DNA of 32,000 nucleotides from Candidatus Saccharimonadota bacterium (GTDB lineage Bacteria > Patescibacteriota > Saccharimonadia > Saccharimonadales > Saccharimonadaceae), in assembly GCA_002421785.1 (NCBI GenBank), contig DIRZ01000003.1, positions 250,700 through 282,699 on the forward strand. The letters are read 5' to 3'. The notes under the pieces are model-generated. The model was not told the origin of the DNA and did not search any database. It saw only the letters and a list, made by a program, of their open reading frames with translations. Position numbers and translations under genes: made by a program. Within the stretch, counting starts at the first letter, position 1. Every line of letters starts with the position of its first letter. This document shows, piece by piece, positions 1,823-27,487 of the stretch.

Positions 1823-1851
1823 AAATAACCTCGGCACTCCCGAGGTTATTT
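1823..1851. terminator. bidirectional intrinsic terminator between convergent genes
   Basis: AAATAACCTCGG-CACTC-CCGAGGTTATTT forms a 12-bp stem with A/T-rich flanks on both strands. It lies between the RRM gene (+) and the ABC gene (-) and overlaps the last codons of the ABC gene. Confidence 0.7.
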
Positions 1852-3663: not shown

Positions 3664-3676
3664 ATATATTATTCTA

Positions 3677-4036
3677 TCATTTTACAAACGGCGAATTGAG
3701 CCAATCCCAGCCTAGGTTGAACCATGCGCTCATAATGCCATAGCCGTTGACTAACCACACGGTTACGACGACCGTCATTGCCGTGAGGAGCCAAAAAATC
3801 GCCTTGATGTACATAGGCTGGGCACGAAGCCATTTTTGCCACGCATGGTAACGACTATGTGTATAGTCATGGACATCACTCGCCCACTGAAACTCACGGG
3901 CTAATATCGACAACCCGATAAACACCACCACCCAACCAGGTCCAGGATATGGTATCATGACCGCGCCAAGGAGTAATACTGACCAGCCGACAAATGCGAC
4001 AAGCGCTTTACGTGTTTTACCCGCTAATCTTGCCAT
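3677..4036 (-). CDS. PGPGW-domain small membrane protein
   Basis: Start moved to the ATG at 4036 (MARLAGKTRK...), since the track start at 4048 is TTG. The signature IPYPGPGWVVVFIGLSILAREFQWA matches the PGPGW transmembrane family, recalled from memory. Confidence 0.65.
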   Translation of the reverse strand: MARLAGKTRKALVAFVGWSVLLLGAVMIPYPGPGWVVVFIGLSILAREFQWASDVHDYTHSRYHAWQKWLRAQPMYIKAIFWLLTAMTVVVTVWLVNGYGIMSAWFNLGWDWLNSPFVK

Positions 4037-4295
4037 ATATCCCCGCAATCTTCTGCTGCAATGAGCTTAGGGCTGGTTGGCTGTAGTAGCTGGGCAGCAC
4101 CTCGCCAGCTAGAATAATAGCTAATAAAACCGCAAACCCGCACATTATTGACGGGATACCAGCGAGCGTCGCCGGATTAATCAGGTTTACGGCAGTAGTC
4201 GGCACAATAAATGCCAGCGCAATTTCGACACCGAACGTTGCTATCATCACCGGTGGAGAAAAACAGCTCAGACGATTCACCTTCATATATCTCAT
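4017..4295 (-). CDS. hypothetical small membrane protein
   Basis: Hydrophobic ORF with possible ATGs at 4295 and 4286. It overlaps the downstream gene by about 20 nt. No recognisable motif, so this is a weak call. Confidence 0.35.
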   Translation of the reverse strand: MRYMKVNRLSCFSPPVMIATFGVEIALAFIVPTTAVNLINPATLAGIPSIMCGFAVLLAIILAGEVLPSYYSQPALSSLQQKIAGIYGKISG

Positions 4296-4338
4296 ACCCT
4301 TGATTATACGCACTTCGGTACCGTTCGGAGATATTTTG

Positions 4339-4378
4339 TTAGTGTAGTATTGACACTTTCTATTCTATGGTTCATACT
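4339..4378 (+). promoter_or_regulatory. nadE promoter overlapped by a candidate NrtR operator
   Basis: -35 TTGACA (4350-4355), 17-nt spacer, -10 CATACT (4373-4378). The 21-bp box TTAGTGT-AGTATTG-ACACTTT (4339-4359) covers the -35 element. Confidence 0.5.
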
Positions 4379-4424
4379 CGCAAGTGAAAAGGCTCAGCCC
4401 TTTGCCATTAACCAAGGAGGATAT

Positions 4425-5237
4425 ATGCGCAAACAACAGCACGACATCATTACAGAACTCGGCAGCCAGCCAACAATCGACCCCGCCTATGAAATAGCGC
4501 GCAGAACTGAGTTTCTCGCAAGCTACTTGGCGAACACTGGCTTAAAAGGCTACATACTGGGCATATCAGGCGGGCAAGACTCGTTACTGGCCGGCATCCT
4601 CGCAAAGCGTGCAGTGGAGCAACGGCGCGAACTTGGCGATGACGCAACATTCCATGCCGTGCTCCTGCCCTATGGCGAACAGGCAGACCGTGCCGATGCG
4701 CTCCTCGCCCTCGAGACCATCCAGCCAGACGTTACCCACGACATCAACATCAAACCTGCGACCGATGCATTCGTGGAGTCATTCAACAGCTTAGGCGACC
4801 GTCCGCTCACCGATTTCAACAAAGGTAATGTAAAAGCACGCATGCGGATGATTGCTCAGTACGCGCTCGCTGGCCAACATAAACTGCTCGTGCTCGGCAC
4901 CGATCACGCAGCCGAAGCGGTGACTGGCTTCTTCACGAAATTTGGTGACGGAGGAGCTGACGTCCTGCCGCTCTCCGGTCTTACGAAGCGGCAAGGCCGA
5001 CAAATGCTCGCACAGCTCGGTGTGCCCGAAGTGTTTATTCGTAAGCAGCCAACAGCCGATTTACTCGACGCTCGTCCTGGTCAGCCGGATGAAACCGAAC
5101 TTGCGCTAAGCTACGAAACCATCGACGATTACCTAGAAGGACGGTCTGTCGATGAGCGCGCGGCAGAACAAATCGAACAACGCTTTGCAGCCACTATCCA
5201 TAAGCGCAGTCTTCCCGTGGCTGCGCCTAGCCTGTAA
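4425..5237 (+). CDS. nadE: NH3-dependent NAD+ synthetase
   Basis: Start set to the ATG at 4425, preceded by AAGGAGG; the track start at 4350 is a TTG inside the promoter. The PP-loop motif GISGGQDS is present, and the ~270-aa length is typical of single-domain NadE. Confidence 0.9.
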   Translation: MRKQQHDIITELGSQPTIDPAYEIARRTEFLASYLANTGLKGYILGISGGQDSLLAGILAKRAVEQRRELGDDATFHAVLLPYGEQADRADALLALETIQPDVTHDINIKPATDAFVESFNSLGDRPLTDFNKGNVKARMRMIAQYALAGQHKLLVLGTDHAAEAVTGFFTKFGDGGADVLPLSGLTKRQGRQMLAQLGVPEVFIRKQPTADLLDARPGQPDETELALSYETIDDYLEGRSVDERAAEQIEQRFAATIHKRSLPVAAPSL

Positions 5238-5269
5238 ACGCTGGCTAAAACTCGCCCATTCATGTAGAC

Positions 5270-5290
5270 TTAGTGTATGAAATACAGTAC
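5270..5290 (+). promoter_or_regulatory. weaker NrtR-box-like site overlapping the nrtR start codon
   Basis: TTAGTGT-ATGAAAT-ACAGTAC. The left arm is perfect and the right arm matches 5 of 7 positions. The ATG of nrtR lies at 5277, inside the spacer. Confidence 0.3.
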
Positions 5291-5954
5291 ACCTTATGTA
5301 CCCCCTACACTAACGGTTGACGCCGTCATCTTCCAATTGAACGGCACCGAACTCGAAGTACTGCTGACACAGCGACAAGAAGAGCCGTTTAAAGGGGAGT
5401 GGGCGCTACCCGGCGGCTACAACCCATCAGGTCAAACAACCCTCGAAGCCCTGTCGGCAATTGTTCGGCGCAAAGTCGGCCTTGACCTCGATGCCCAGCT
5501 TCCCTACATTGAGCAGCTGTATACCTTTGACACCGTTGCCCGTGACCCCCGTGGCCACGCAGTCTCGGTGACCTACATGGGCTGCGGCCGAGCCATCGAA
5601 CTAAGTGGTGGTAGCCAAAATGCAGAATTCTTCCCCGTCGACCGACTGCCTGGCCTGGCATACGACCATGAAAAGATTATCGAATATGCACGGGACCGCC
5701 TAGGCGCAAAGCTTACCTACACCAATGCCGTTTCTGGCCTACTGGAATCTAAATTTACTCTTAGCCAGCTACAGACCGCCTACGAAGCCGTCATGGGACG
5801 CGAAATCGATAAACGAAACTTCCGTAAAAAATTCCTGAGCCTTGGGCTCATTCACGAAACGCCAGACATGTGGCGCGAAGGCGCTCACCGCCCCGCTAAG
5901 CTCTACGCCTTCAACAACGAATCACTCGAAGTGCTCGCTCGTAGCTTCGAATAA
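5277..5954 (+). CDS. nrtR: NrtR-family Nudix-related transcriptional regulator (N-terminal Nudix-like domain + C-terminal winged helix)
   Basis: The Nudix-like N-domain contains GEWALPGG and a degenerate Nudix box. The C-terminal ~80 aa (FTLSQLQTAYEAVMGREIDKRNFRKKFLSLGLI) is the characteristic NrtR wHTH. It sits in an NAD gene cluster. Confidence 0.8.
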   Translation: MKYSTPYVPPTLTVDAVIFQLNGTELEVLLTQRQEEPFKGEWALPGGYNPSGQTTLEALSAIVRRKVGLDLDAQLPYIEQLYTFDTVARDPRGHAVSVTYMGCGRAIELSGGSQNAEFFPVDRLPGLAYDHEKIIEYARDRLGAKLTYTNAVSGLLESKFTLSQLQTAYEAVMGREIDKRNFRKKFLSLGLIHETPDMWREGAHRPAKLYAFNNESLEVLARSFE

Positions 5955-5958
5955 GCTC

Positions 5959-7512
5959 CTACGCGTCGTACGGTGTACGCTTTTGAGCCACAAGAAGTGT
6001 ATTTGTCGTGGGCTGCGGTAATTCGTTTAGCGATCCATCAACGCGCTCATACACACGACCTGCCGGTACGAACCGGTTGTCAATCAACCAAGGATTAGTG
6101 ATCCGACGTGAAGCGGCTGTCATAACAAAGCCTGCAGCTTCCAGCACCTCACACCACTCTTCGTGAGAGTAAAAGCAGAATTTTTCATGCATCTCACTCC
6201 GCCAGCTCGTCAAATAATCTTTTTTGGCCAAAAATTCACACAAGTCACCGTGCGACATCACTGCATACTCAGTGCCATCAACATACTCACGACGCACTAC
6301 AATACCATCACCTTCGTCCTGACGAAAATCACGCTCAAACCGACGAAGCCTCGCAGCAGTCGAGAGCGTCCCCAAAAAGCCAGCCAGTTCATCGCCCTCA
6401 AGCTCCCACTGCAGATCATCAGGATTTTCGCCATCATCACTTGTAGGCGCGAAGTATACTTCCTTTGTCCGATCATCTGGCCCGACCACATCGTAATTAA
6501 TGTAGACGCCTCCCGGGGCAAGCATATCGTGAGCGCGCGCAATAAACTGATGCAGTGCGTCGTGCCCCAGGTATGACTCCACTTCATGCGTCAACGCCAT
6601 CGTGATAACCGTCGTAAGAGACGCTGGCTTAAATAACTCACTCTGCATAATATTACGTTGGTAAAAATACACATTCGTGTCGCCAAATTCTCCGTTTGTC
6701 TTGCGCTGCTGGCAAATCTCGTAGAGTGGCCGTGCTGCTTCGACCCCATAGAAATCTGATTCGAATAACTCCGGGCGCTCGCCGAGCAACTTGATAGTCT
6801 GCCCAGTCGCACATCCCACATCAAGTATTTTGCCTGGCAGCACATAGTCAGCGAAGTCGTTCACTTTGCGCCACGCATTATCTTCGAATGCCGCACGGTA
6901 TGATGTATAGTCACGGGAAAGCGTAATATCACCGTCGTCCGACCCAATAAGGGGATCAGCGTAGATTGTTTGCACTAGCTCTGCCACAGCATATCGCTCG
7001 TAAAGCGTTTTGCACACTGGGTGCATCGCTTCGGTAATTGTCGGGTCAGCACTCCACTCAGGGCCACGCGCGATAATACGCCTCACGACATCCCAGGGCA
7101 TCTCGGCCCGAGATTCCTGCTCGACGGTCGCGATACCAAAGCCAAGGGATTCGTACTGCGCGATGACCGCATCAGTCGAGCATGCAACGATAGTGTTGTC
7201 TGGCCGCATATCCACGCGACCACTCGTCTGTGTGCGAATTTCTTCGATGAGGTAATGCGCAAAGTTGGAACGGTATCGTACGTTGCTAATCAGATACACT
7301 TGGCTCGGCAACTGCTCTACGGCTGCGACAGCTTCAATCATACCGAGTCGTCGCGCGCCTGCAATAGGGTTACGCTGCGTACCAGTATGATCTGCCGACG
7401 TCACAGCCCAAACGACCTCGGCATCTGGGTATTGCGCCAATAGGTTCTTCAGGTAGGCCGCCTGAAAACGCGTCACAAGGTGGTGCCGACCCGGTATCAG
7501 CACGTATTTCAC
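5959..7512 (-). CDS. fusion protein: archaeal-NMNAT (NadM)-like nucleotidyltransferase-fold domain + class I SAM-dependent methyltransferase
   Basis: GTG start overlapping the upstream stop (GTGA). The N-terminus MKYVLIPGRHHLVTRFQ...VWAVTSADHTGTQRNPIAGARRLGMI aligns by eye with archaeal NMNAT (GRFQPFHKGH...IGSAQ.SHT..NPFTAGER). The canonical H-x-G-H motif is not present. The C-terminal half has SAM motif I, ILDVGCATGQT. Confidence 0.75.
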   Translation of the reverse strand: MKYVLIPGRHHLVTRFQAAYLKNLLAQYPDAEVVWAVTSADHTGTQRNPIAGARRLGMIEAVAAVEQLPSQVYLISNVRYRSNFAHYLIEEIRTQTSGRVDMRPDNTIVACSTDAVIAQYESLGFGIATVEQESRAEMPWDVVRRIIARGPEWSADPTITEAMHPVCKTLYERYAVAELVQTIYADPLIGSDDGDITLSRDYTSYRAAFEDNAWRKVNDFADYVLPGKILDVGCATGQTIKLLGERPELFESDFYGVEAARPLYEICQQRKTNGEFGDTNVYFYQRNIMQSELFKPASLTTVITMALTHEVESYLGHDALHQFIARAHDMLAPGGVYINYDVVGPDDRTKEVYFAPTSDDGENPDDLQWELEGDELAGFLGTLSTAARLRRFERDFRQDEGDGIVVRREYVDGTEYAVMSHGDLCEFLAKKDYLTSWRSEMHEKFCFYSHEEWCEVLEAAGFVMTAASRRITNPWLIDNRFVPAGRVYERVDGSLNELPQPTTNTLLVAQKRTPYDA

Positions 7513-8519
7513 GAATTCTGTAACGCTCTCTGCGCAAATTCGTGCGATAGACGCGTCAATCGCTCGTAATCTTGCACCTGTTCGAACCCGGTAGGGGTCA
7601 CGAATTCACCCGATGCGTGCGCATTTGCCATCGTGCCAGCAATCGAAGCGATACTGTCGGTATCACCCCCCAGGTTAACCGCGTAGTTCACCGCGGTCGT
7701 GTAATCACCTCGGGCAGCCACCAGCACATCATAGGTCATCGCTACCGTACTAGGTACAAAAAATCCATAGCGTCCATTAGCATGCCCGATGGCGTAACGG
7801 CCAACGAGCTGTGTCAGCGACGTCACAGGAAAACGCATGGCGCGCTCAATTCGACCCTTTGGATCGGCGTTCGGTTCACTCGCCAGGACATCAAGCGCTT
7901 TCGTTCGGAACGCATCTAGCGATGCATCTGGATGTTCCAGTAGCCAATGTGTCACCTCGCCGTGTAGTCGCGTACACGCGCGAGCAATCTCACTATCATG
8001 CGTCATCGTGGTTAACTCGTCATACTGCTGCCGGCGTGTGGGCTCGTCAATTTGCCGAGCGACCTGCCAATAGACGAGAGGCGCCATCTTCATCAATATA
8101 CCGTTCCCGGCACCTTCTGGTTCTCCTGATTCAAGTGGGGACATGCCCGCTGCCATACGCTCCATGCTAGCAGTCGTCGACCCTCCCCAGCCGCGTACCG
8201 ACCACTCGCCTTTGTAGTTTTTGGTCTTCGTTATCGCATGGTATGCGCTCAAATGTGCTTCGGCTTGCGCATCGATATCAAACCCATCTGCTGCCAACAG
8301 GCCTTCGGCCACCGCAACTGACAACTGCGTGTCGTCGCTCGTCGTGCCAGCAGGGAAATTACCCGGGTAGTAGGGATTGTGAAGTGGTGGAATTAAATGG
8401 TCAAGCCGGCCATACCGCCCCGCAATTTCAGATGCTGACATCGTTTCAGTGGGGAGCCCCATTGCATCGCCATACGCAATCGAGGGTAATAACCGTTCGC
8501 CAACACGTTTCATCGTCAT
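7509..8519 (-). CDS. ADP-ribosylglycohydrolase family protein (DraG/ARH-like)
   Basis: Start set to the ATG at 8519, which forms an ATGA overlap with the upstream stop. Motifs AYGDAMGLPTE, TSDDTQL and GGDTDSIASIAG are the di-metal site signatures of the ARH family. Confidence 0.85.
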   Translation of the reverse strand: MTMKRVGERLLPSIAYGDAMGLPTETMSASEIAGRYGRLDHLIPPLHNPYYPGNFPAGTTSDDTQLSVAVAEGLLAADGFDIDAQAEAHLSAYHAITKTKNYKGEWSVRGWGGSTTASMERMAAGMSPLESGEPEGAGNGILMKMAPLVYWQVARQIDEPTRRQQYDELTTMTHDSEIARACTRLHGEVTHWLLEHPDASLDAFRTKALDVLASEPNADPKGRIERAMRFPVTSLTQLVGRYAIGHANGRYGFFVPSTVAMTYDVLVAARGDYTTAVNYAVNLGGDTDSIASIAGTMANAHASGEFVTPTGFEQVQDYERLTRLSHEFAQRALQNS

Positions 8520-9337
8520 GGTTGTGTGAGTCTTTCTGCAGCACTTGCCTGCGCCAGTAGTTCTTCGCCAGTATACCTTCTTCGGGCAGAAAGCTCTACC
8601 CATTTACCCTCGAATGGTGAGCTTGCAGGGTCAAACGGATATGTATAGCGCCGCCATTGCAACTTTTCGCGCACATCATGTGGGTCATCGGGGTTAACTC
8701 TCGTATAGTGAAGAATCGTACAATTGCGCAGTGCGTAGGTATGGTCTGCGTCTATCTTCTCCCACTCTTCGGGTGTCATTCGCTCAATGCCATAGCGTGC
8801 CGCATTAATGAAGTCGCCATGTGTCACCACGCAGACACGCTTGCCGGCCTGCTCACGGTGCAATGTTCCCTGAAAATCACGAAAGCGGGCGTATACATCC
8901 GGCATACTCTCGCCACCATCAAGGCGCGTGTACCATGGATTCTGCGCCTTCTCCTGGGCCGTCATAGGGAAAAGTGCACGCTGTTCGGCGGTCGGTCGCT
9001 TTCCATACACGCCCCAACTCCGTTCAACAACCCGGTCATCAATCGTCCAGCCACCCAGTTCCGGGCCACCAAGGCAGGCAGCCGTTTCACGGGTTCGGTA
9101 AAATGGCGAAACATACAATGCGTCAAACGACGCCAGGCCCCCGACATTCTCGTCAAGCCATCGTTTAGCTGTTTCTGCTTGCGCCACACCATTCTGCGTA
9201 AGACGGTGCTGCCAATCTGGCCTGCCAAAAATTGCCTGCACCGTGTTGTCATCCAGGCCATGGTCGTCACTCTTCTGAACAGTGTTCGCTTCAGACTGGC
9301 CGTGTCTGATAAAAATTAAGTCGTTAGGCATCGCCAT
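8516..9337 (-). CDS. histidine phosphatase superfamily protein (phosphoglycerate-mutase-like, branch 1)
   Basis: The catalytic motif LIFIRHGQSEAN (RHG) is present, together with RTRETA, ERSWG and VTHGDF. An AAAGGAG RBS precedes the ATG at 9337. Confidence 0.85.
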   Translation of the reverse strand: MAMPNDLIFIRHGQSEANTVQKSDDHGLDDNTVQAIFGRPDWQHRLTQNGVAQAETAKRWLDENVGGLASFDALYVSPFYRTRETAACLGGPELGGWTIDDRVVERSWGVYGKRPTAEQRALFPMTAQEKAQNPWYTRLDGGESMPDVYARFRDFQGTLHREQAGKRVCVVTHGDFINAARYGIERMTPEEWEKIDADHTYALRNCTILHYTRVNPDDPHDVREKLQWRRYTYPFDPASSPFEGKWVELSARRRYTGEELLAQASAAERLTQP

Positions 9338-9391
9338 TTTTACATCTCCTTTTGCATGTACTACCTGTATTGTACTACATAATTCGCATAA

Positions 9392-9455
9392 ATAGTGTTG
9401 ACATTACAATAACTATTCGCTAGGATGAAGCTAGTAAGTGTATAAAGTACAATAA
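9392..9455 (+). promoter_or_regulatory. pnuC promoter with two candidate NrtR operators, in the divergent region shared with the histidine-phosphatase operon
   Basis: -35 TTGACA (9398-9403), 17-nt spacer, -10 TAGGAT (9421-9426). Box 1, ATAGTGT-TGACATT-ACAATAA (9392-9412), covers the -35 element. Box 2, TAAGTGT-ATAAAGT-ACAATAA (9435-9455), lies downstream of the -10 element. Confidence 0.5.
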
Positions 9456-9474
9456 GTACAGAAAGTGAATCATC

Positions 9475-10197
9475 ATGAAATTACAACTTAATCCTAAAGG
9501 TGCCAGCCTCACACGGCACATCACAGAAAGCATCATCATTGGTGTCGTACTGACATTCCTCTCCTATGCAGTCGGTATCTTTGCAGGCTGGCTCACCCCT
9601 GCCGGGCTTAACTGGCTTGAGGTATTCGCCGTCCTCACATCATATGCCTGTACCTATCTGTGTGTGGTTGAGCGACGCATCAACTACCCCATCGGTGCAA
9701 TCAGCTCGGCCGCCTATGCGGTGCTCTTTATGCAGAGCGGGTTGCTATCAAGCGCCATTCTGAACGCCTACTTGGCACCAACGCTCATTTACGGCTGGCT
9801 CCGTTGGCGCAAAGATGCCAATGCTCGCCCAGTTACTCACGTCGAGCTGAAGTGGCTTCCCGTGTACGTCATCGTGGCAGCCGCTGGGTATGTAGGCGCC
9901 AGCCTGATTAGCAAATCGTTTGGCGGGGCGATGGCCTGGACGGACTCGATCATATTGGCTGGGACTATCCTGGCACAGTTCTTGCTCGATAATAAAAAGC
10001 TTGAAAACTGGGCAGTGTGGGCTATGGTAAATGTCTTCGCTATCTACACCTACTGGACAATTGGCCTCCCACTTGTCGCCTTCCAGTACATCTTTTTCCT
10101 CGCAAACACCGTCTACGGCTATATCACCTGGAAGCGCAGCAAGGAGCAGGCTCATGAGACCTCAACCCTCAAAGAACCCGTCCTCACCGAAGCCTAA
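9475..10197 (+). CDS. pnuC: nicotinamide riboside transporter PnuC
   Basis: 240-aa polytopic membrane protein with W/Y-rich helices and a C-terminal motif FQYIFFLANTVYGYITW typical of PnuC. It lies directly upstream of RNK/NadR genes. Confidence 0.8.
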   Translation: MKLQLNPKGASLTRHITESIIIGVVLTFLSYAVGIFAGWLTPAGLNWLEVFAVLTSYACTYLCVVERRINYPIGAISSAAYAVLFMQSGLLSSAILNAYLAPTLIYGWLRWRKDANARPVTHVELKWLPVYVIVAAAGYVGASLISKSFGGAMAWTDSIILAGTILAQFLLDNKKLENWAVWAMVNVFAIYTYWTIGLPLVAFQYIFFLANTVYGYITWKRSKEQAHETSTLKEPVLTEA

Positions 10198-10762
10198 GTC
10201 CTTTACTATCACCATCTTTGGCGCCGAGTCGACTGGCAAAACGACACTCAGCCGTGAACTTGCGACAGTACTCGGTGCCCAGTGGCTGTACGAATTCGCC
10301 CGCCCCTACCTTGAGCTGACGAGTGCACCCATCACCCCCAGCTCGATGACGGCAATTTGGCACGGCCAGCAGGTGCTACAGACGATGCGCGAAGGCCATG
10401 TCATCGTGCAGGATACCGACCTGTTCTCAACAGTTGGATACTGGCAGTTCCCGCACTGGCACCCGGTCCTCGGCGACTGCCCCGCTGCGCTCATTCGTGA
10501 CGCCAAGCACCTTCAGTCAGACCTTTACCTTATTACGCCAAGCAACATCCCCTTCGAACATGACCCACTTCGCTACGGCGGGGATGCACGAGAAGGGACC
10601 GATGACTACTGGGTAGCGGTCTGTGAACAATATCAATTACCGTACGTCGTGCTGAACTCCAGCGACCCGTCAGCACGCGTCACCGAAGCACTCACTATTA
10701 TGCAAACAAAGGAGAATCTATGCGCGGCCTCGTCATTGGCAAATTTTACCCACCCCACCTAG
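10154..10762 (+). CDS. stand-alone NadR-C-terminal-like P-loop ATPase (putative ribosylnicotinamide kinase)
   Basis: Start set to the ATG at 10154, preceded by AAGGAG; the upstream part of the track ORF is an out-of-frame reading of pnuC. Walker A is FGAESTGKTTLSRELA and a Walker-B-like VQDTDL follows. It is a paralogue of the C-terminal domain of the next gene. Confidence 0.7.
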   Translation: MRPQPSKNPSSPKPKSFTITIFGAESTGKTTLSRELATVLGAQWLYEFARPYLELTSAPITPSSMTAIWHGQQVLQTMREGHVIVQDTDLFSTVGYWQFPHWHPVLGDCPAALIRDAKHLQSDLYLITPSNIPFEHDPLRYGGDAREGTDDYWVAVCEQYQLPYVVLNSSDPSARVTEALTIMQTKENLCAASSLANFTHPT

Positions 10763-11691
10763 GGCACAACTACCTCATCGATACAGCGCTAGCCAACAGC
10801 GACGAAGTTGACGTACTAGTCGTTGATAACCCCGCCTATCGTCTACCTGCCGCCAAGCGTGCAGCCTGGCTAAGAGCACGCCACCCAGCGGCCCATGTCA
10901 AAATCATCCCTGACATATATGATGATGCCAACTCAATCTCATGGGGCAAGCATACCATCGACTTCCTCGGGTACCGTCCGGACACCGTGTTTAGCTCTGA
11001 AGACTACGGCAAGCCGTGGGCAGATGCCATGAACTGCAAAAGCGTGCTCGTCGACCTGGATCGACTGACCTTTCCCGTGTCGGGCACCCTTGTCCGTCAG
11101 GATATGCTGAACTCGTGGCATATGCTATCTGACGAGACAAAAGCCGGCCTAGCCCTCCGCGTTGTCATCGTGGGTGCTGAATCAACTGGCACGACAACGC
11201 TTTCCCGTGACCTCGCCGCCGCGCTCCATGTGCCATGGGTCCCTGAAGTTGGTCGGTACTACACCGAATCAATTCTGACAGATGGCTACGAATGGCGTGA
11301 TGAGGACTTCTATCGAATCGGGCGATTGCAGCAACACTATGAAAACGAAATTGCCGCGCGGAGTAAGGGCGTCATCGTGTGCGACACGAATGCCGTCGCG
11401 ACAGAGCTATGGCAGCGGCGCTACATGGGCAAAACGACGTCTGAGATGCGCGAGATTGCTGCAAACGACAAAGCCGATCTGTACATCATCACCGGTGACG
11501 AGATACCCTTCGTGCAGGATGGCATCCGCGACGGCGAACACATCCGCCACCGCATGCACCGTTGGTTCCTGGCACACATTAAAAAATCCGGTATACCCTA
11601 CCTGGTAGTTACCGGTACGCCAGAGGAGCGCCTTGCCGCGGCACGCACTGCCGCCGAAGCAATGATTCGCGACAGACGCGTCATTACATAA
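10720..11691 (+). CDS. nadR: bifunctional NMN adenylyltransferase / ribosylnicotinamide kinase (NadR type, no HTH domain)
   Basis: The N-terminus GKFYPPHLGH is the nucleotidyltransferase G-x-F-x-P-x-H-x-G-H motif. The C-terminal domain has Walker A GAESTGTTTLSRDLA. An AAGGAG RBS is present, and the gene overlaps the previous gene by 43 nt. Confidence 0.85.
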   Translation: MRGLVIGKFYPPHLGHNYLIDTALANSDEVDVLVVDNPAYRLPAAKRAAWLRARHPAAHVKIIPDIYDDANSISWGKHTIDFLGYRPDTVFSSEDYGKPWADAMNCKSVLVDLDRLTFPVSGTLVRQDMLNSWHMLSDETKAGLALRVVIVGAESTGTTTLSRDLAAALHVPWVPEVGRYYTESILTDGYEWRDEDFYRIGRLQQHYENEIAARSKGVIVCDTNAVATELWQRRYMGKTTSEMREIAANDKADLYIITGDEIPFVQDGIRDGEHIRHRMHRWFLAHIKKSGIPYLVVTGTPEERLAAARTAAEAMIRDRRVIT

Positions 11692-11723
11692 TGTTGCAAT
11701 AACTACATCATTATTTTACATAG

Positions 11724-11790
11724 TTAGTGTTGACTTTACACTAACAACGCGTTACACTCAGTTTATAAGTTAGTGTATATATCACACTAA
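11724..11790 (+). promoter_or_regulatory. pncA promoter with two perfect 21-bp palindromes (candidate NrtR operators)
   Basis: Box 1 is TTAGTGT-TGACTTT-ACACTAA (11724-11744) and box 2 is TTAGTGT-ATATATC-ACACTAA (11770-11790). The -35 TTGACT (11730-11735) lies inside box 1, followed by a 17-nt spacer and -10 TACACT (11753-11758). Confidence 0.6.
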
Positions 11791-11816
11791 CAATAAGAAT
11801 AAAGGAGTTGACCACT

Positions 11817-12539
11817 ATGAATACCCTCAAAGCCCCCCAAGTATACGGCGAAGTTATGCTAGGCAACATCGATGTGCAGAACGACTTCTGCCCTGGCGGC
11901 ACACTCGCCGTTAGGGATGGAGACAAAGTCGTAGGACCACTCAATGCTGTCGGTGAATTTGTCGCCGAGCATGACGGCTTCGTCTTTAATACAGGCGACT
12001 TCCACGATCCACGCACAGCACACTTCGACACAAACGGCGGCCCATGGCCTGTCCACTGCGTAGAGTACCGCGCCGGTGCAGCTTTTCACGAAGACCTGAC
12101 TATCCGTCCTAATGATAGCGTCGCCTACAAAGGCACAAGCCTGGTTGACGACGGCTACTCTGGTGCTGAAGCGGTTATCCAGCGCGGTCGCCTCGAGTCC
12201 ATCGTGTCAAACCTCCCCGCAAGCGAACGGACGATAGGTGCTGCGATTGAGCGCATTGAGCAAGTAACTGAACAGTACAAACGACGCCTGGCGGTGTTAA
12301 TCGGCGGACTTGCGACAGACTACTGTGTGAAGGCGACCGTTCTCGACGTACTCGCCATTACAAATCGGGAAACAACCGATGTTATTGTGCTCCGTGATGC
12401 AATTCGTGCCGTCAACATCAATGAAACAGACGGTGAAGATGCAATCAACGCGATGCTTGAAGCTGGCGCACTAGCAATGACAACTGAAGAAATTCTTGCG
12501 GGCGGCATCGTTATTGATCATACACGGCTGGAGCGCTAA
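11817..12539 (+). CDS. pncA: nicotinamidase (isochorismatase family)
   Basis: Start at the ATG at 11817, 9 nt after AAAGGAG. Motifs DVQNDFCPGGTLAV and the catalytic-Cys motif LATDYCVKAT are present. Confidence 0.85.
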   Translation: MNTLKAPQVYGEVMLGNIDVQNDFCPGGTLAVRDGDKVVGPLNAVGEFVAEHDGFVFNTGDFHDPRTAHFDTNGGPWPVHCVEYRAGAAFHEDLTIRPNDSVAYKGTSLVDDGYSGAEAVIQRGRLESIVSNLPASERTIGAAIERIEQVTEQYKRRLAVLIGGLATDYCVKATVLDVLAITNRETTDVIVLRDAIRAVNINETDGEDAINAMLEAGALAMTTEEILAGGIVIDHTRLER

Positions 12540-12549
12540 GGTGAGCGCT

Positions 12550-13851
12550 ATGAACAAACGCGAGACACCTTCCCTTTCCCAAGGCCTCGACTATTACAAA
12601 GCCACAATGGGGCAGGTTGAATTCGATAAACACCCCGACACAATCGTTACCTTTGAGCTAAAGAATCGTGGAGCCAACAAGCTATCGACCTACGTGACTC
12701 CTGAGCAGTTATCGGCACGACTAGCCGAGCTCCAGGACGGATGGAGCCCAGAAGAAGTTGCCTACCTGGCTGGCCTCACCAACCAAGACGGTGGTGCTCG
12801 CTTCACCCCAGAGTATCTCGACTTCCTCGCGGACAATCCACTTCCCCCCGTGCAGGTCGGCTATGATGAACACCATGAGCTTACCGTCAAAACGACTGGT
12901 GCGTGGCCGCTCGTGACCTTTTGGGAAACAGTCGTGATGAGCGAGCTTAATGAGCTCTACTTCGCTGGCAAATTAGCCGCAGAAGGCAGCTCACTCGATG
13001 AACTTTATGCCGAAGGCGAACGGCGTCTTGATAGCAAGATCGCCACGCTCCGCGACCGACCTGATATTAAATTTTCAGACTTCGGTACACGCCGACGCTT
13101 CAGCTACGACTGGCAGAAGCACGTTATCGAACGTGTCGCCCAGGAGCTACCTAGCCAATTCCTTGGTACCTCAAACATTTTCCTGGCGCATGAGCTCAAC
13201 CTGAAACCAATCGGCACCTACGCACACGAGATGCCCATGGTATACGGCGCCATCGAACAAATGAATGGCAACGACCCGCTCGACGGTCATCACAAAATGC
13301 TCCGCGACTGGGAAACGACCCACCGTGGCGACCTTGCAACTGCGTTGACCGATACCTGGACAACTGACTACTTCTTCACCGACTTCACCCCAGAACAAGC
13401 CGAAGCTTGGGGCGGCCTACGACACGATTCTGGTGACCCATTTGAATTCGGCGAACGTGTTATTACGTTTTACCAGCAATACAATATCGATCCACGCGCC
13501 CACACCATTGTCTACAGTGACGGCCTCGACATCGACATGATTGTCGCCCTGGCAGACCGCTTTAGGGGCCGCGTCAATCTCGTGTTTGGCTGGGGCACTA
13601 CGCTCACCAACGACCTGGGGGTTAAAGCGAACAACTTCGTCATGAAAGCCACTACAGTTGCAGAAGCCTCCCTGCCGCAGTACGAGCAAGGTACCGTCAA
13701 GCTGAGTGACGCCGAAGGCAAGCACATGGGCAGCCCTGAAGATGTCGAACTCTATGGACAACGCGTCAAACGTGCTGTCGCCATGGGCGCTCGAGCCTAC
13801 CAGTTGAGTGTCGCGAATAACGCACATGAAAAACAGCTGGTGGCTGTATGA
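12550..13851 (+). CDS. pncB: nicotinate phosphoribosyltransferase
   Basis: Start at the ATG at 12550, after AAGGTGA. Motifs YYKATMGQ, DFGTRRRFS, GTYAHEMPM, SDGLD and FGWGTTLTND are typical of PncB. Confidence 0.85.
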   Translation: MNKRETPSLSQGLDYYKATMGQVEFDKHPDTIVTFELKNRGANKLSTYVTPEQLSARLAELQDGWSPEEVAYLAGLTNQDGGARFTPEYLDFLADNPLPPVQVGYDEHHELTVKTTGAWPLVTFWETVVMSELNELYFAGKLAAEGSSLDELYAEGERRLDSKIATLRDRPDIKFSDFGTRRRFSYDWQKHVIERVAQELPSQFLGTSNIFLAHELNLKPIGTYAHEMPMVYGAIEQMNGNDPLDGHHKMLRDWETTHRGDLATALTDTWTTDYFFTDFTPEQAEAWGGLRHDSGDPFEFGERVITFYQQYNIDPRAHTIVYSDGLDIDMIVALADRFRGRVNLVFGWGTTLTNDLGVKANNFVMKATTVAEASLPQYEQGTVKLSDAEGKHMGSPEDVELYGQRVKRAVAMGARAYQLSVANNAHEKQLVAV

Positions 13852-15329
13852 AGTGTCCCGAACTTCGCGCAAACACAGCGAACGTCGAACTACCAACTCA
13901 TGAGGAGCAAGAGGGCTTTCTTGCCCTTGGCCTTACTACTGATAACAATGGACGCCCTTTGCACCCATGGCGCTACGATATCCCCGACCTGCCCTCCACC
14001 AAAGGCGATTTATGGAAATGGGGACCAAATTATACTGTAGACCCCATCGTTCTGTCCCAGGACAACGACGGTCCAGTAATACTGCTTATCCAGCGAGGCG
14101 ACTGCGGACAATGGGCGCTACCTGGCGGCTTTGTCGATAGTGGCGAAAACCCCCTCGAAGCAGCGCGCCGCGAGCTCCGCGAAGAAACCAGTTTGGAGAT
14201 CACGGACGGTGAGTCGACGGCACATGTTTGCTATCAAGGGCCAGTCCACGACAGACGAAGCACCATGTACGCATGGCCAGAAACGACATCGATCTTGATG
14301 CATGTCCCTACCGCGCCCGTTGCCGCTGGGGATGATGCCATGACCGCCCAATGGGTGCCCCTAAAAGACGTCCGCCTACTGCCGGGCCTTTATGGGTCAC
14401 ATGGTACACTAATTGATATGGCAATTCGAGACAGCGGTACATTTCATGAGCAACTCGAATACTTTAGTAACCAAGTTGAGTTTAGCCAACCTACTGGTGG
14501 GCACATGGGCTACACTCGGCACATCGCATCACTACCCACAGGCAGGCGCGTATTCATTAAGCGGCACGACGCCGACAAGTTCACCGATGAGACGCGCGCT
14601 CAACATTCAAAACGCTATCTACACAAGGAGCATCACGTCTACCAGCAGCTATCAGACACATCCCCTCATACTCCTGACCACATTGAATTGACTAATGACA
14701 GTACTCTGCTGCTCGAAGCATACGACCCACGTGATGGATGGCAGTGGAAAGCACCACTGGACATTACTGAGCGTAGACGATATATCCATGAAGTAATCGA
14801 GGCTCTGCGCACCATTGAACCTGCGAGGTATGAGCCATTTGTTGACGTAAAACCGTCATATCATACGATTATCGATGAGGGTTGGGGCGCCTACCCTACA
14901 GCCCGCACACGCATTATCGAAAAGCTGCACAGATCCTCAGTCGAAGGAGCCCGGGCACTTGCCGATAGCCTGGATGAGCTATACGAACGTACTCAGCATC
15001 TCCCGTCACCAGAGCTTACCCACTTCGCTCATTATGACGTCCGCCAATCAAACATCGCCTGGCATCCCGAGCATGGCGTACGCATTGTTGATTGGAGTTG
15101 GGCGGATCCCGCCCCTAAAGGCGTAGATACCACGAGCTTTCTGATTGACATACATAAAGCCGGATATTCTATCGATGAGCATATGCCGGATTTTAATGCC
15201 GAACACGCACTGATACTTATAGGATTCTGGCTAGGCCACAGCATATGGCCGACACCAACACACGATCAAACCGTTCGCGAGCATCAAATCAGTTCAGCGG
15301 TTGCCGCTTTTCAGCTACTTAACCAGTAG
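13848..15329 (+). CDS. fusion protein: NUDT9-like Nudix (ADP-ribose pyrophosphatase-like) + protein-kinase-like/APH-fold phosphotransferase
   Basis: ATGA overlap with the pncB stop. The N-terminal half has KWGPNYTVDPIVL (NUDT9-type upstream motif, from memory) and the Nudix box GGFVDSGENPLEAARRELREETSL. The C-terminal half has FIKRHD (putative beta3 Lys), catalytic loop HYDVRQSNIAW (H-x-D-x4-N) and metal-binding IVDWSWA. Confidence 0.8.
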   Translation: MKCPELRANTANVELPTHEEQEGFLALGLTTDNNGRPLHPWRYDIPDLPSTKGDLWKWGPNYTVDPIVLSQDNDGPVILLIQRGDCGQWALPGGFVDSGENPLEAARRELREETSLEITDGESTAHVCYQGPVHDRRSTMYAWPETTSILMHVPTAPVAAGDDAMTAQWVPLKDVRLLPGLYGSHGTLIDMAIRDSGTFHEQLEYFSNQVEFSQPTGGHMGYTRHIASLPTGRRVFIKRHDADKFTDETRAQHSKRYLHKEHHVYQQLSDTSPHTPDHIELTNDSTLLLEAYDPRDGWQWKAPLDITERRRYIHEVIEALRTIEPARYEPFVDVKPSYHTIIDEGWGAYPTARTRIIEKLHRSSVEGARALADSLDELYERTQHLPSPELTHFAHYDVRQSNIAWHPEHGVRIVDWSWADPAPKGVDTTSFLIDIHKAGYSIDEHMPDFNAEHALILIGFWLGHSIWPTPTHDQTVREHQISSAVAAFQLLNQ

Positions 15330-15342
15330 TAGCGGCTGAGGC

Positions 15343-17364
15343 CTACAACTGTCGAACAAATTCCTGGAATTCTCCCTCAGAGATAACTTTCGTTCCATAG
15401 CGCTTAGCTTTCGCAAGCTTACTCGCCCCAACCTTACCGCCTGCAACAAGGTATGTCGTATCCTTCGCGACAGAACTTTGAAATACTCCGCCCTGCGCGC
15501 GAATCATTTCTGCTGCTTCATCGCGCGTCATTGATTCTAGACTACCCGTAATGACAAAGCTCTGCCCGACGAGCTTGCCCGATTTTGGTGTATAGTGAGG
15601 CACAACGCCAAGCAGGTTAAATTTTTCAAGCAATGCCATATTGTCATCGTCCGCAAACCACGCCGCGATACTTTCCGCAACAACGACACCGATACCGTCA
15701 ACATCAGTCAGTTGATCAAGGGTTGATTGCGCTAAAATATCGAGAGATTTAAACCGAGCAACCAAATCAATAGCTGTCTGAACGCCAACGTGGCGGATGC
15801 CCAGGCCAAAAAGAAATCGTTCAAGTGGCGGCTGTTTCTTCTCAGCAATCGCATCAATAAGCTTACGTGCCGAAATATCCCCAAAGCGATCAATCTGCAA
15901 CAGATCTTCCACAGAAAGCGTGTAAATATCAGCCAAATCTTTCACCAGACCGGCATCGACAAGCGCCACCACATTTTTCTCGCCGAGTGTGTCAATGTCA
16001 AGAGCACCTTTGCTCGCAAAATGTTGAAGCGCTCGCTTTAGAATCAATGGTCCCGTAAGGCCTTTTACTCGGTACACCACCTCGCCCTCTGGGCGCTCAA
16101 ACTCCAACTCCGGGTACTGCCTGGCAAGCTCGGCGTTGTAGTCAATGGGTTGCGCATCAACCTGCCGTAGGTCTGTAATGACGCCTTCGACTTGCGGAAT
16201 AATATCCCCGGCCTTAAAAATAACAACCGTGTCTCCACGACGAATGTCCAAACGCGCAATTTCGTCGGCGTTGTGCAGACTGGCGTGCCGAACGGTCGTA
16301 CCCGCCACTTGTACAGGATCGAAAACTGCAACGGGAGTAGCGGCACCTGTGCGGCCAATCGAGATAACGATATCACGCACTACTGTTGTCGCCTGCTCGG
16401 CGGCATATTTATAAGCAACCGCACCACGGGGTTGCTTACCAACAATTCCAAGTTTATTATAGAGATCGCGGTCATTAACTTTAACGACAAGTCCATCTGT
16501 ATTAAAAGGTAGCTCGTGTCGGGCATCATCCCAATGACGCACAAAAGACATCACATCATGTAACGAGGTGAATACCGCTGCCTCCGGATTACGAGTAATG
16601 CCAAGTGCCGTCAGCGCCTCGTAGGCGAACATATTCGTTGGCACCTCGTCAGCATGATCACGAATGAGGTCGTATCCTCGAAAATGAAGCGGTCGGCTCG
16701 CCACCAGTGCCGGGTCAAGCTGACGTACCGTACCCGCTGATAGGTTACGCGGGTTAGCAAACTCGGGCTTTCCTGCTGCGCGTTGCTGCTCATTCAGCGC
16801 AGCAAAATCTTTCTTCAACATCACCACTTCTCCTCGAATTTCCGTACGCCCCTCAAGAAAACCCTCATACCCAGCCGCGCGCCTGAGGCGGAGAGGTACG
16901 TTCTTTATGGTACGGACATTGGCAGTCACATCTTCGCCCTCATAGCTATCACCACGAGTAACCGCCTGCCGCAAAATACCATCTTCGTAGATAAGCGCAC
17001 AGGCAAGGCCATCCATCTTGATATCAGCAAAAAACTCATGCCTTACACCGGGTAGCTGTTTATCAATTCGTTTTACCCATGCCTCGACCTCTGCCGTGTC
17101 AAACACATCATTCAAACTGATCATTCGCGTGCGATGCCTTACTTTTGCAAAACCATCCAGTAACTTGTTACCAACTCGCTGAGTGGGGCTATCGGGCGTA
17201 ACAAGCTCAGGATGTTCACGTTCAATGGTCTTTAATTCGCCAAACAGTCCGTCGTAAACTGCATCGCTGACACTCGGCTGGTCGAGCACATGATATTCAT
17301 AGCTATAGCGCTCGATAACCTGGCGAAGCTCTGCAACGCGATCACTAGGCTGGTTTTGCGTCAT
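15343..17364 (-). CDS. ligA: NAD+-dependent DNA ligase
   Basis: 673 aa. The adenylation motif is DIKMDGLA (KxDG). OB, Zn, HhH and C-terminal BRCT-like regions follow in the typical order. Confidence 0.95.
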   Translation of the reverse strand: MTQNQPSDRVAELRQVIERYSYEYHVLDQPSVSDAVYDGLFGELKTIEREHPELVTPDSPTQRVGNKLLDGFAKVRHRTRMISLNDVFDTAEVEAWVKRIDKQLPGVRHEFFADIKMDGLACALIYEDGILRQAVTRGDSYEGEDVTANVRTIKNVPLRLRRAAGYEGFLEGRTEIRGEVVMLKKDFAALNEQQRAAGKPEFANPRNLSAGTVRQLDPALVASRPLHFRGYDLIRDHADEVPTNMFAYEALTALGITRNPEAAVFTSLHDVMSFVRHWDDARHELPFNTDGLVVKVNDRDLYNKLGIVGKQPRGAVAYKYAAEQATTVVRDIVISIGRTGAATPVAVFDPVQVAGTTVRHASLHNADEIARLDIRRGDTVVIFKAGDIIPQVEGVITDLRQVDAQPIDYNAELARQYPELEFERPEGEVVYRVKGLTGPLILKRALQHFASKGALDIDTLGEKNVVALVDAGLVKDLADIYTLSVEDLLQIDRFGDISARKLIDAIAEKKQPPLERFLFGLGIRHVGVQTAIDLVARFKSLDILAQSTLDQLTDVDGIGVVVAESIAAWFADDDNMALLEKFNLLGVVPHYTPKSGKLVGQSFVITGSLESMTRDEAAEMIRAQGGVFQSSVAKDTTYLVAGGKVGASKLAKAKRYGTKVISEGEFQEFVRQL

Positions 17365-18475: not shown

Positions 18476-18491
18476 CTCGACTCCCCCGCAC

Positions 18492-18528
18492 CAACAAAAC
18501 ACCCTTGGACAAGCCAAGGGAATTTTGT
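18492..18528 (-). terminator. terminator-like stem-loop immediately 3' of tRNA-Leu(TAA)
   Basis: The minus strand reads CAACAAAATTCCCTTGG-CTTGT-CCAAGGGTGTTTTGTTG. The GC core CCCTTGG/CCAAGGG is followed by TGTTTTGTT. The hairpin abuts the RBS of the next CDS, so it may attenuate transcription or act as a processing site. Confidence 0.45.
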
Positions 18529-18614
18529 TGGTGCGCAGAGCGGGAATCGAACCCGCACGACTTTTGGTCAAGGGATTTTAAGTCCCTCGCGTCTACCTAT
18601 TCCGCCATCCGCGC
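18529..18614 (-). tRNA. tRNA-Leu (anticodon TAA), long variable arm, CCA encoded
   Basis: Reverse complement is GCGCGGATGGCGGAATAGGTAGACGCGAGGGACTTAAAATCCCTTGACCAAAAGTCGTGCGGGTTCGAATCCCGCTCTGCGCACCA. The anticodon stem is AGGGA/TCCCT with loop CTTAAAA, and the T-loop is TTCGAAT. Confidence 0.9.
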
Positions 18615-27305: not shown

Positions 27306-27487
27306 ATATCCATTGTACCGCAATACTACCCCTGTTGTAAACGCAAGTGCTCATACACGTTGCATCATCTTGGTGTATTTAGTATACTTATAACACTATG
27401 AACTTGCGCTAGTTCCTCTACTCGTGAATGTTGGGACGGCCTAACCACTTGCGATACAAACAACTAAGAGAAAGGTTTTATTAACAC

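Follow-up and report, generated by a model that had tools for sequence, protein, structure and literature searches.

A predicted NrtR regulon in Saccharibacteria joins NAD salvage genes to candidate ADP-ribose enzymes

Related regulons and pathways

NrtR proteins are repressors in which a degenerate Nudix domain is joined to a winged helix. In the published NrtR regulons (Rodionov 2008, NAR 36:2047; PMC2330246), these proteins regulate their own genes and bind 21-bp palindromes with a GT-N7-AC core. A regulon of this type is predicted in a 32,000-nucleotide stretch (the window) of contig DIRZ01000003.1 of a Candidatus Saccharimonadota bacterium, in which a contiguous block of 11 genes occupies the interval 4.3-15.3 kb. 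This island shares with the published regulons the repressor type, the palindromes, the apparent autoregulation and the targets nadE, pncA, pncB, pnuC and nadR (with nadD in relatives of the window). The nrtR-draG pairing of Streptomyces (PMC2330246) is a precedent for its ADP-ribosylglycohydrolase gene (ARH). In contrast to the published reconstructions, which do not include Saccharibacteria/Patescibacteria, all units of the island lie within one 11-kb stretch. The island also adds three proteins that are not listed there: a histidine phosphatase (HisPhos), a fusion of a NUDT9-type Nudix domain with an APH-like kinase (NudixKin) and a 517-aa fusion of a NadM-like domain with a methyltransferase (NTMT).

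The NARP pathways of phages restore NAD after its cleavage. NARP1 consists of Adps (a PRPS-like ADP-ribose [ADPR] pyrophosphokinase) and Namat (NAMPT-like), NARP2 of Nampt and an NMNAT/Nudix protein (NMNAT, nicotinamide mononucleotide adenylyltransferase) and NARP3 of PnuC and a NadR-like protein. The bifunctional NARP2 enzyme resembles NudixKin in carrying a Nudix ADPRase domain, and the pnuC and NadR-type pair of the island has the same composition as NARP3, although here it belongs to ordinary cellular salvage and is not phage-encoded. An earlier interpretation of this DNA (the sequence-only reading) compared the island with NARP1 and NARP2. This comparison holds at the level of logic but not of enzymes, as the window contains no Adps, Namat or NAMPT and no Pribosyltran/Pribosyl_synth or NAMPT-type protein was found among the scanned window open reading frames (ORFs). 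Unlike the NARP pathways, the island is cellular and repressor-controlled, and its ADPR is predicted to be hydrolyzed rather than pyrophosphorylated and religated.

NadM-Nudix proteins (Synechocystis, Francisella; PDB 2qjo, 2qjt, 2r5w) combine an NMNAT fold with an ADPRase in NrtR-controlled salvage. Their Nudix half is structurally similar to that of NudixKin, and the N-terminal domain of NTMT is a remote NadM homologue. In the island, however, the two folds are found on separate proteins, each with a new partner, and the NadM-like domain lacks the HxGH motif. Human NUDT9 and the NUDT9-homology domains of TRPM2 are the top sequence and structure matches of the NudixKin Nudix domain, including the N-terminal GRP..W..WGPN.t.DP motif and the intact Nudix box. 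NudixKin differs from NUDT9 in being bacterial and in its fusion to a 290-aa choline-kinase/APH-like kinase.

The NrtR island and its operators

Judged by its sequence, the block is a genuine NrtR regulon, a known type of system with new members. The best overall explanation, and one that is probably correct, is an ADPR-responsive NrtR regulon with two salvage routes and accessory ADPR/ribosyl enzymes. The 11 genes form four units: nadE-nrtR, HisPhos-ARH-NTMT, pnuC-AAA_28-nadR-type and pncA-pncB-NudixKin. The block can be described as contiguous because its intergenic gaps are only 5-140 bp and several gene pairs overlap by 4 nt. These 4-nt start/stop overlaps occur at HisPhos/ARH, ARH/NTMT and pncB/NudixKin, and so HisPhos/ARH/NTMT and pncB/NudixKin are likely to be operons. 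Domain assignments for all eleven proteins were made using Pfam and NCBIfam profile scans. The sequence-only reading had described eleven consecutive NAD-related genes in four units, and all of its domain calls were reproduced. The scans also bear out its assignment of PncA/PncB/NadE to Preiss-Handler salvage and of PnuC, a ribosylnicotinamide kinase (RNK) and NMNAT to nicotinamide riboside salvage.

The regulator gene nrtR (5277..5954, +) encodes a protein with a Nudix-like effector domain (NUDIX, PF00293) and an NrtR winged helix (PF21906, NrtR_WHD; E-value: 4.5e-24). It also matches NCBIfam NF050029 (E-value: 3e-37), under the equivalog cut-off. The catalytic residues E/RE/EE of the Nudix box are replaced by Q/AI/RK, as would be expected of this regulator, and the protein is predicted to be a repressor of Nudix origin that has lost Nudix catalysis.

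The three plus-strand promoter regions of the island have the 21-bp palindrome TTAGTGT-N7-ACACTAA in common. It agrees with the NrtR consensus in the literature, including the GT-N7-AC core (PMC2330246). At up to three mismatches, the motif has nine matches in the window (1.02 expected), a number reached by none of 100 shuffled sequences. Upstream of nadE, the palindrome TTAGTGTAGTATTGACACTTT (4339..4359, two mismatches) overlaps the -35 box of a predicted promoter (TTGACA-17-CATACT, 4350-4378). The sequence-only reading began the island at 4339, which is the first base of this operator and not of a gene. A weaker site (5270..5290, two mismatches) is located over the nrtR start codon, and a site at this position is also found in loci L002 and L004. 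The region between the divergent HisPhos and pnuC genes contains ATAGTGTTGACATTACAATAA (9392..9412, two mismatches), which overlaps the -35 box of the predicted pnuC promoter (TTGACA-17-TAGGAT at 9398). A second site, TAAGTGTATAAAGTACAATAA (9435..9455, two mismatches), follows 43 bp past it, beyond the -10 box but ahead of the start of pnuC. Two perfect sites precede pncA: TTAGTGTTGACTTTACACTAA (11724..11744) overlaps the -35 box of the predicted promoter (TTGACT-17-TACACT at 11730), and TTAGTGTATATATCACACTAA (11770..11790) lies 46 bp downstream of it. These are the top three plus-strand promoter matches among the island genes, and every -35 hexamer falls inside an operator-like site. The combination of a site covering the -35 box with a second site 43-46 bp downstream (pnuC, pncA) is a classical repressor layout. 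NAD riboswitches of the nadA and pnuC types were not found by an Rfam search of the whole window.

Conservation in Saccharibacteria

A scan of a genome collection anchored on NTMT recovered 79 loci, 19 of which are from Saccharibacteria; neighbouring genes were identified by tblastn and ORF clustering. In the 19 Saccharibacteria loci, NTMT is accompanied by HisPhos (12), pncA (11), pncB (13), NudixKin (11) and nrtR (12), as well as by nadE and often ligA. The usual order is NudixKin<-pncB<-pncA <operators> HisPhos->(ARH)->NTMT. The operator motif is present at up to two mismatches in 17 of the 19, usually as a pair of sites approximately 43 bp apart in the region between pncA and HisPhos, and also upstream of nadE, nrtR and nadD. 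The proposal of one NrtR-centred regulon with four units is thus supported by operator-like sites at each promoter region of the island and in orthologous positions in approximately 17 other Saccharibacteria loci. Taken together, these operators and gene pairs are seen again in about 20 further loci of the group.

Look-ups anchored on NudixKin gave seven loci (L081-L087), in five of which HisPhos is divergent from pncA-pncB-NudixKin. A close relative (L085) has the same layout as the window. The complete genome of Candidatus Saccharimonas aalborgensis has the order nadE-nrtR-pnuC-AAA_28-nadR-pncA-pncB-NudixKin, without the HisPhos-ARH-NTMT insert. A human oral metagenome contig (L084) has a reduced arrangement with only nrtR-NudixKin (438 aa) and no pncA, pncB, nadE or HisPhos nearby. 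The sequence-only reading was to be abandoned if its non-canonical genes showed no conserved linkage to NAD salvage genes. The neighbourhood census shows that the linkage of HisPhos, NudixKin, NTMT and, sporadically, ARH to pncAB/nrtR recurs across Saccharibacteria, and the reading survives this check.

Small genomes hold long syntenic blocks, and ligA and a neighbouring membrane protein are syntenic in these loci without operators. The adjacency of the non-canonical genes could accordingly be fortuitous in a compact genome, with no relation to NAD. This explanation is extremely unlikely given that operator-like sites are found at every unit and are kept in orthologous positions, and that linkage of NTMT to nrtR arose independently in at least four phyla.

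No published description of an NrtR regulon in this phylum was found, and a literature search found nothing on nadD in Saccharibacteria or on a link between NrtR and a methyltransferase. The Saccharibacteria-wide divergon of HisPhos and pncAB-NudixKin, the NUDT9-APH fusion and the cross-phylum link between NrtR and NTMT appear to be undescribed in the literature searched.

In four of the Saccharibacteria loci (L004:11643-16400, L005, L025 and L051), an operator-preceded operon is found downstream of NTMT and ends at a convergent nrtR. It encodes a PP2C-like phosphatase, a 622-aa kinase-like protein, a 352-aa PNC1-like nicotinamidase and a vWA-like protein.

NudixKin, ARH and HisPhos

NudixKin (13848..15329, +; 493 aa) contains a NUDT9-type Nudix domain followed by a choline-kinase/APH-like kinase. 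The closest solved relatives of the Nudix half are human NUDT9 (hmm E-value: 1.6e-27; Foldseek E-value: 3.4e-13, 32% identity) and the TRPM2 NUDT9-homology domains. The Nudix box is intact (GGFVDSGE-x7-RELREETSL), the NUDT9-specific flanks are present and the structure model has a pLDDT of 92. These results uphold both the earlier description of the protein as NUDT9-like and its link to ADPR. The C-terminal 290 residues are of the choline-kinase/APH type: Choline_kinase was matched in 9/9 and APH in 6/9 family members in Pfam, and choline kinases were matched in the PDB (approximately 2e-3). The kinase residues K238 (beta3), E261 (alphaC), H395-x-D397-x4-N402 and D415 are invariant in 21 sequences. 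NudixKin is 99% identical to a protein from the assembly of Candidatus Saccharibacteria bacterium 32-50-10, and its homologues are apparently confined to Saccharibacteria. No description of a NUDT9-kinase fusion was found in the literature.

ARH (7509..8519, -; start probably ATG 8519) is a member of the ARH/DraG family (ADP_ribosyl_GH, PF03747; E-value: 1.7e-45, 156 bits compared to a cut-off of 26). Lmo0067 and the T. thermophilus ARH are its closest PDB matches. The protein carries the di-metal motifs GDAMG, SDDT and GGDTDS. The ADPR link that had been suggested for it is supported.

HisPhos (8516..9337, -) belongs to branch 1 of the histidine-phosphatase superfamily (His_Phos_1; E-value: 3.4e-29) and has intact RHG...RxxET...HG motifs. 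Of all the island proteins it is the best conserved, with at least 63% identity among the best 120 of 420 homologues, nearly all of which are from Saccharibacteria. Comparison to the CobC alpha-ribazole phosphatase model TIGR03162 gave 71.6 bits (cut-off: 162.9) and no named equivalog scored above threshold. Because it falls under every equivalog cut-off, HisPhos can be classified only as a His_Phos_1 member. An analogy to ADPR-1''-phosphate phosphatase was rejected, as it has no family support and the known phage enzyme is a macrodomain.

NTMT, a NadM-derived domain fused to a methyltransferase

NTMT (5959..7512, -; 517 aa) consists of a NadM-like (NMNAT-fold) domain (residues 1-185), a highly conserved linker and a class I S-adenosylmethionine (SAM)-dependent methyltransferase (residues 205-517) with a large lid insertion. 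The same sequence (100% identity) is recorded as a hypothetical protein in Candidatus Saccharibacteria bacterium 32-50-10. A profile of residues 1-185 built from 24 homologues and compared to the PDB matched only archaeal-type NMNATs (MJ0541/1f9a E-value: 4.2e-6, then 1m8g and others), which substantiates the earlier NadM-like call. The hhalign probability against the Bacteroidota NadM domain is 88%. The NadM motif GSAQ...T..NPFT..ER is retained as TSA.H.GT.RNP....R. The catalytic GxFxPxHxGH motif ((H/T)xGH) is replaced throughout the family by PGRHHxxTxFQ, and HxGH is absent whichever of the two possible registers is used. The domain is NadM-derived but should not be classed as an adenylyltransferase.

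The methyltransferase core is located at residues 216-343 (profile), and its SAM motif I (LDVGCATG) and acidic residue E258 are intact. A Foldseek search of the NTMT model against the PDB found only generic class I methyltransferases (Rv2258c, METTL6, RebM and others), which give no clue to the substrate; the N-terminal domain was not visible in this search. NTMT can be described as a predicted SAM-dependent methyltransferase with a NadM-derived domain for binding pyridine/adenine nucleotides that is probably non-catalytic. The family is a small and well-delimited one: in a set of 1.84 billion representatives it forms 143 clusters at 50% identity (E-value below 1e-30), and most of these are full-length fusions with a length of 500-560 aa. 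Its members are annotated everywhere only as "class I SAM-dependent methyltransferase". The closest group outside Saccharibacteria is formed by Tessaracoccus/Arachnia (Propionibacteriales) proteins, which are approximately 60% identical to NTMT. Gene exchange is possible.

Defence and anti-defence systems often contain enzymes that act on NAD and ADPR (NARP1-3 papers), and the pnuC and nadR-type pair is composed like the phage NARP3. The island might then serve in anti-phage defence or counter-defence, or be of an ADP-ribosylating toxin-antitoxin type, with ARH, Nudix and methyltransferase proteins acting in an NAD-depletion conflict. Such a role is very unlikely. Among 50,697 phage records, none matches NTMT, and NudixKin is matched by its Nudix domain only, within NMNAT/Nudix genes. 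PADLOC gave only generic methyltransferase and Nudix matches and assigned no system. Toxin, NADase and mobile-element genes are absent, and the island has a chromosomal synteny that is maintained throughout the class.

NTMT and NrtR in other phyla

Full-length NTMT proteins are found in Actinomycetota, Bacteroidota, Spirochaetota, Planctomycetota, Myxococcota and others. In 18 loci outside Saccharibacteria, a full-length nrtR homologue (37-41% identity, winged helix covered) is located within 10 kb of NTMT and is mostly adjacent to it. The gene orders are NTMT-nrtR-nadM/Nudix-nadV-(146 aa)-(SPFH-NADK-like)-prs in Bacteroidota, nrtR-SPFH-NADK-like-NTMT in spirochaetes, NADK-like<-SPFH <> nrtR->NTMT in Micrococcales and SPFH-NADK-like-NTMT in Solirubrobacteraceae. 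In Salana and Tessaracoccus, NTMT is solitary. Of the two recurrent neighbours, a 307-aa protein matches NAD kinase 2 structures only (NADK-like) and a 335-aa protein is SPFH/Band 7. This pair is found beside nrtR/NTMT in Actinomycetota, Spirochaetota and Bacteroidota (L024, L026, L028, L055, L069, L071, L031, L043 and L054). In addition, a conserved protein of approximately 146 aa with no Pfam match lies between nadV and prs/SPFH in Bacteroidota (L031:14741-15175, L054:14759-15175 and four other loci).

NrtR-type palindromes are found ahead of the Micrococcales nrtR-NTMT genes and of the spirochaete nrtR-SPFH-NADK-like-NTMT genes; the spirochaete sites have one to two mismatches relative to the consensus from Saccharibacteria. 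In Tessaracoccus rhinocerotis, the solitary NTMT is preceded by a related site. In Marivirga, sites follow NTMT and precede both nrtR and the gene next downstream of it. Rodionov 2008 (PMC2330246) included unnamed NrtR targets in the arrangement nrtR<#>nrtX-nrtY. The arrangement nrtR<#>SPFH-NADK-like resembles this, and by analogy the SPFH and NADK-like genes may be nrtX-nrtY. A literature search for the identity of nrtX found nothing.

The partners of nrtR-linked NTMT are quite different from phylum to phylum, and the commonest NTMT neighbours outside Saccharibacteria are the NADK-like and SPFH genes. HisPhos-ARH-NTMT (elsewhere SPFH-NADK-like-NTMT) could thus be a separate module for the modification of NAD derivatives or for signalling, which has no part in salvage and merely shares the ADPR-responsive regulator. 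It might, for example, methylate NAD(P), ADPR or a pyridine base, or reverse the ADP-ribosylation of proteins or nucleic acids. The contiguous salvage genes of S. aalborgensis, which lack the HisPhos-ARH-NTMT insert, and the nrtR-draG pairs and nrtX-nrtY targets already recorded by Rodionov 2008 (PMC2330246) are consistent with such a module. However, HisPhos and pncA share an operator region in nearly every Saccharibacteria locus, which is the tightest linkage of the island. Neither a target nor a product of the module can be named, and there is no PADLOC defence signature. A separate module is therefore a real possibility but not the expected answer.

Salvage genes and the adenylyltransferase step

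The salvage genes of the island are of known types. NadE (4425..5237, +) is an NH3-dependent NAD synthetase (NAD_synthase; E-value: 5.9e-65). Its start is probably ATG 4425, which follows AAGGAGG; the mechanical ORF begins at 4350. PncA (11817..12539, +; PRK11609, E-value: 1.5e-29) is a nicotinamidase with a probable start at ATG 11817 after AAAGGAG, and PncB (12550..13851, +; NAPRTase, E-value: 5.7e-54) is a nicotinate phosphoribosyltransferase with a probable start at ATG 12550. PnuC (9475..10197, +; PF04973, E-value: 1.4e-40) is a nicotinamide riboside transporter. The next gene (approximately 10154..10762, +) encodes an AAA_28-only P-loop protein (GAESTGKTT) that is a paralogue of the NadR RNK domain. 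Its start is uncertain (approximately 10154 or later), and the S. aalborgensis orthologue has 179 aa. The NadR-type protein (10720..11691, +; TIGR01526, E-value: 4e-50) consists of an NMNAT domain and an AAA_28 RNK domain, with no helix-turn-helix domain. Its NMNAT motif (GKFYPPHLGH) is intact, and its P-loop has the sequence GAESTGTTT.

Pfam and NCBIfam scans and tblastn with a Saccharibacterial NadD found no NadD in the window, in agreement with the sequence-only reading. In relatives, a 190-aa NadD-type gene (GGAFNPPTLAH...SSTLVRE) is divergent from nadE or nrtR, directly behind NrtR operator-like sites. Four operator-preceded copies are in loci with NTMT (L011:11847-12374, L022:3813-3944, L025:19244-19768 and L072:15957-16478), and the gene is also found at the 5' ends of L082 and L083. 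Among the loci at hand, those with nadD do not have pnuC-nadR, and those with the NadR-type gene (the window and S. aalborgensis) show no nadD beside nadE. The adenylyltransferase step would most likely fall to the NadR-type NMNAT, whose motif is intact, or to a nadD in another part of the genome.

The sequence-only reading suggested that the NadM-like domain of NTMT might fill the NadD step, which in the island would be the adenylylation of nicotinic acid mononucleotide (NaMN). This was not borne out. NTMT is unlikely to be a NaMN adenylyltransferase because its HxGH motif is lost to PGRHHxxTxFQ and because it co-occurs with operator-linked nadD in the four loci above and with nadM-Nudix in Bacteroidota.

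The same adenylyltransferase role is one half of a closed, NARP-like loop, in which NudixKin would also convert ADPR to an activated ribose phosphate (toward phosphoribosyl pyrophosphate, PRPP) for use by PncB. The translational coupling of pncA-pncB-NudixKin, the homology of the NTMT N-terminal domain to NadM-type NMNATs only and the lack of nadD in the 32-kb window would all fit this loop. Many APH-fold kinases are anomeric sugar kinases, and the conversion of ribose-5-phosphate to ribose-1,5-bisphosphate is chemically plausible for such a fold. The loop is nevertheless improbable. In addition to the changed motif and the accompanying nadD and nadM-Nudix genes, it leaves the invariant methyltransferase half of NTMT unexplained, and the NadR-type NMNAT of the window is intact. 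The window scans identified no enzyme for ribose-1,5-bisphosphate to PRPP and no PRPS- or NAMPT-like protein. Finally, oral Saccharibacteria retain nrtR-NudixKin without pncB. The broader proposal that the regulon rebuilds NAD from ADPR and nicotinamide is likewise not supported, as no PRPS-like, NAMPT-like or other enzyme leading from ADPR or ribose-5-phosphate to PRPP or NAD is identifiable. For ADPR, hydrolysis is the only fate that the predicted enzymes suggest.

Proposed model of the regulon

The model proposed for the NrtR regulon builds on domain identities, operator statistics and conservation, and synteny, all of which were directly observed. NrtR repression, the ADPR effector and every substrate of the four non-canonical proteins (NudixKin, HisPhos, ARH and NTMT) are predicted. 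The bacterium that carries it is a Saccharibacterium, an obligate epibiont unable to make NAD de novo. NrtR would bind the palindromes over the -35 boxes, together with the second site approximately 45 bp on, and repress nadE-nrtR, pnuC-AAA_28-nadR and pncA-pncB-NudixKin. The divergent HisPhos-ARH-NTMT unit is presumably also NrtR-controlled through the pnuC operator region. By analogy with characterized NrtR proteins, ADPR produced by NAD-consuming enzymes would lift repression. In a first derepressed route, PnuC would import nicotinamide riboside, which the NadR-type protein, through its RNK and NMNAT domains, would convert to NAD. In a second, PncA and PncB would turn nicotinamide into NaMN and NadE would finish the synthesis.

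The accessory enzymes would act on ADPR and related ribosyl compounds. The NUDT9-type domain of NudixKin is expected to hydrolyze ADPR to AMP and ribose-5-phosphate, which would remove the inducer and provide negative feedback. ARH would release ADPR from ADP-ribosylated substrates or O-acyl-ADPR. The APH-like kinase may phosphorylate a ribosyl intermediate, with ribose-5-phosphate (to ribose-1,5-bisphosphate) and nicotinamide riboside or nicotinic acid riboside as guesses. HisPhos may dephosphorylate such an intermediate, for which 2'-phospho-ADPR, NADP or NaMN can be guessed. NTMT, whose link to NrtR is kept across phyla, would methylate its substrate using SAM.

A more specific joint proposal can be put forward only tentatively, and is rather less likely to be right than wrong. 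The approximately 140 clusters of the NTMT family would be NAD/ADPR-directed methyltransferases that use the degenerate NadM domain as a di- or mononucleotide-binding module. In NudixKin, the hydrolysis of ADPR would be linked to the phosphorylation of the ribosyl product that it releases, or else of nicotinamide riboside. HisPhos would be the missing phosphatase for a phosphorylated compound from NAD breakdown, either 2'-phospho-ADPR/NADP or a mononucleotide.

Several observations weigh against the ADPR-responsive regulon with accessory enzymes. Binding of NrtR to the island sites and its response to ADPR are extrapolated from the Synechocystis and Shewanella proteins. No minus-strand promoter for HisPhos-ARH-NTMT scored above the promoter-scan threshold, and the case for shared-operator control of this unit thus comes from position and conservation. 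ARH is sporadic (approximately one third of related loci) and pnuC/nadR are present in a minority. The retention of nrtR-NudixKin without pncAB in L084 suggests that the role of NudixKin is independent of PncB, which argues against a kinase that solely feeds PncB. In Bacteroidota, the operators are downstream of NTMT, so that the gene is co-located but not demonstrably co-regulated. Approximately two thirds of the NTMT loci outside Saccharibacteria have no NAD gene within 10 kb.

Since Saccharibacteria/Patescibacteria depend on cofactors from a host bacterium, upkeep of the NAD pool is central to their parasitic lifestyle. The island offers a compact and testable model of it, with one ADPR-sensing repressor, two import/salvage routes and one ADPR-clearing enzyme. 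It also nominates three uncharacterized but strongly conserved enzymes (NTMT, NudixKin and HisPhos) for NAD biochemistry. NTMT stands out among these because its NrtR link recurs in distant phyla and its annotation is generic. If the substrates are indeed NAD-derived, steps would be added to a pathway map generally held to be complete, and long-unnamed NrtR targets could be identified.

Neighbouring genes and other features of the window

The G+C content of the window is 0.51-0.55 at 4000-15000 and mostly 0.46-0.52 elsewhere. A convergent NAD-dependent DNA ligase gene, ligA (15343..17364, -), is located 14 bp past NudixKin. The sequence-only reading noted that ligA follows the island directly. 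The adjacency is real, and its synteny is conserved in relatives, but ligA is on the opposite strand, has no operator and is not included in the regulon. Upstream of ligA, a 408-aa mechanical ORF (17345-18571) overlaps a tRNA-Leu gene, so its true start must be further downstream. Four tRNA genes are present in the window, all on the minus strand (759-834, 18529-18614, 18738-18811 and 19753-19840; Ala-GGC, Leu-TAA, Cys-GCA and Leu-GAG).

On the other side of the island, genes for orf98, a PGPGW membrane protein and a 605-aa ABC transporter (1846-4313, -) are divergent from nadE, and the operator region at 4339 is common to both. Homologues of orf98/PGPGW/ABC are found near NAD genes in L004, L005, L007, L010, L051, L081-L083 and L087, in varying arrangements. 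These genes may be a further unit of the regulon or encode a pathway-related transporter.

The four Nudix genes counted in the window by the sequence-only reading were all recovered (5277, 13848, 25821 [minus strand] and 29338). Two weak matches to the NrtR motif, at 27370/27379, were rejected as operators, as they have two to three mismatches, overlap each other and lie beside non-NAD genes. They are located just 5' of an MDR-NUDIX RNA motif (Rfam RF02918; 27395-27454, +; 65.7 bits compared to a gathering score of 54.9). This motif is directly upstream of genes for an MDR-type ABC transporter (27488-29263) and a protein with winged-helix and Nudix domains (29338-30045). Because of the RNA motif and the transporter gene that precede it, the Nudix gene at 29338 can be assigned to a different, RNA-associated unit.

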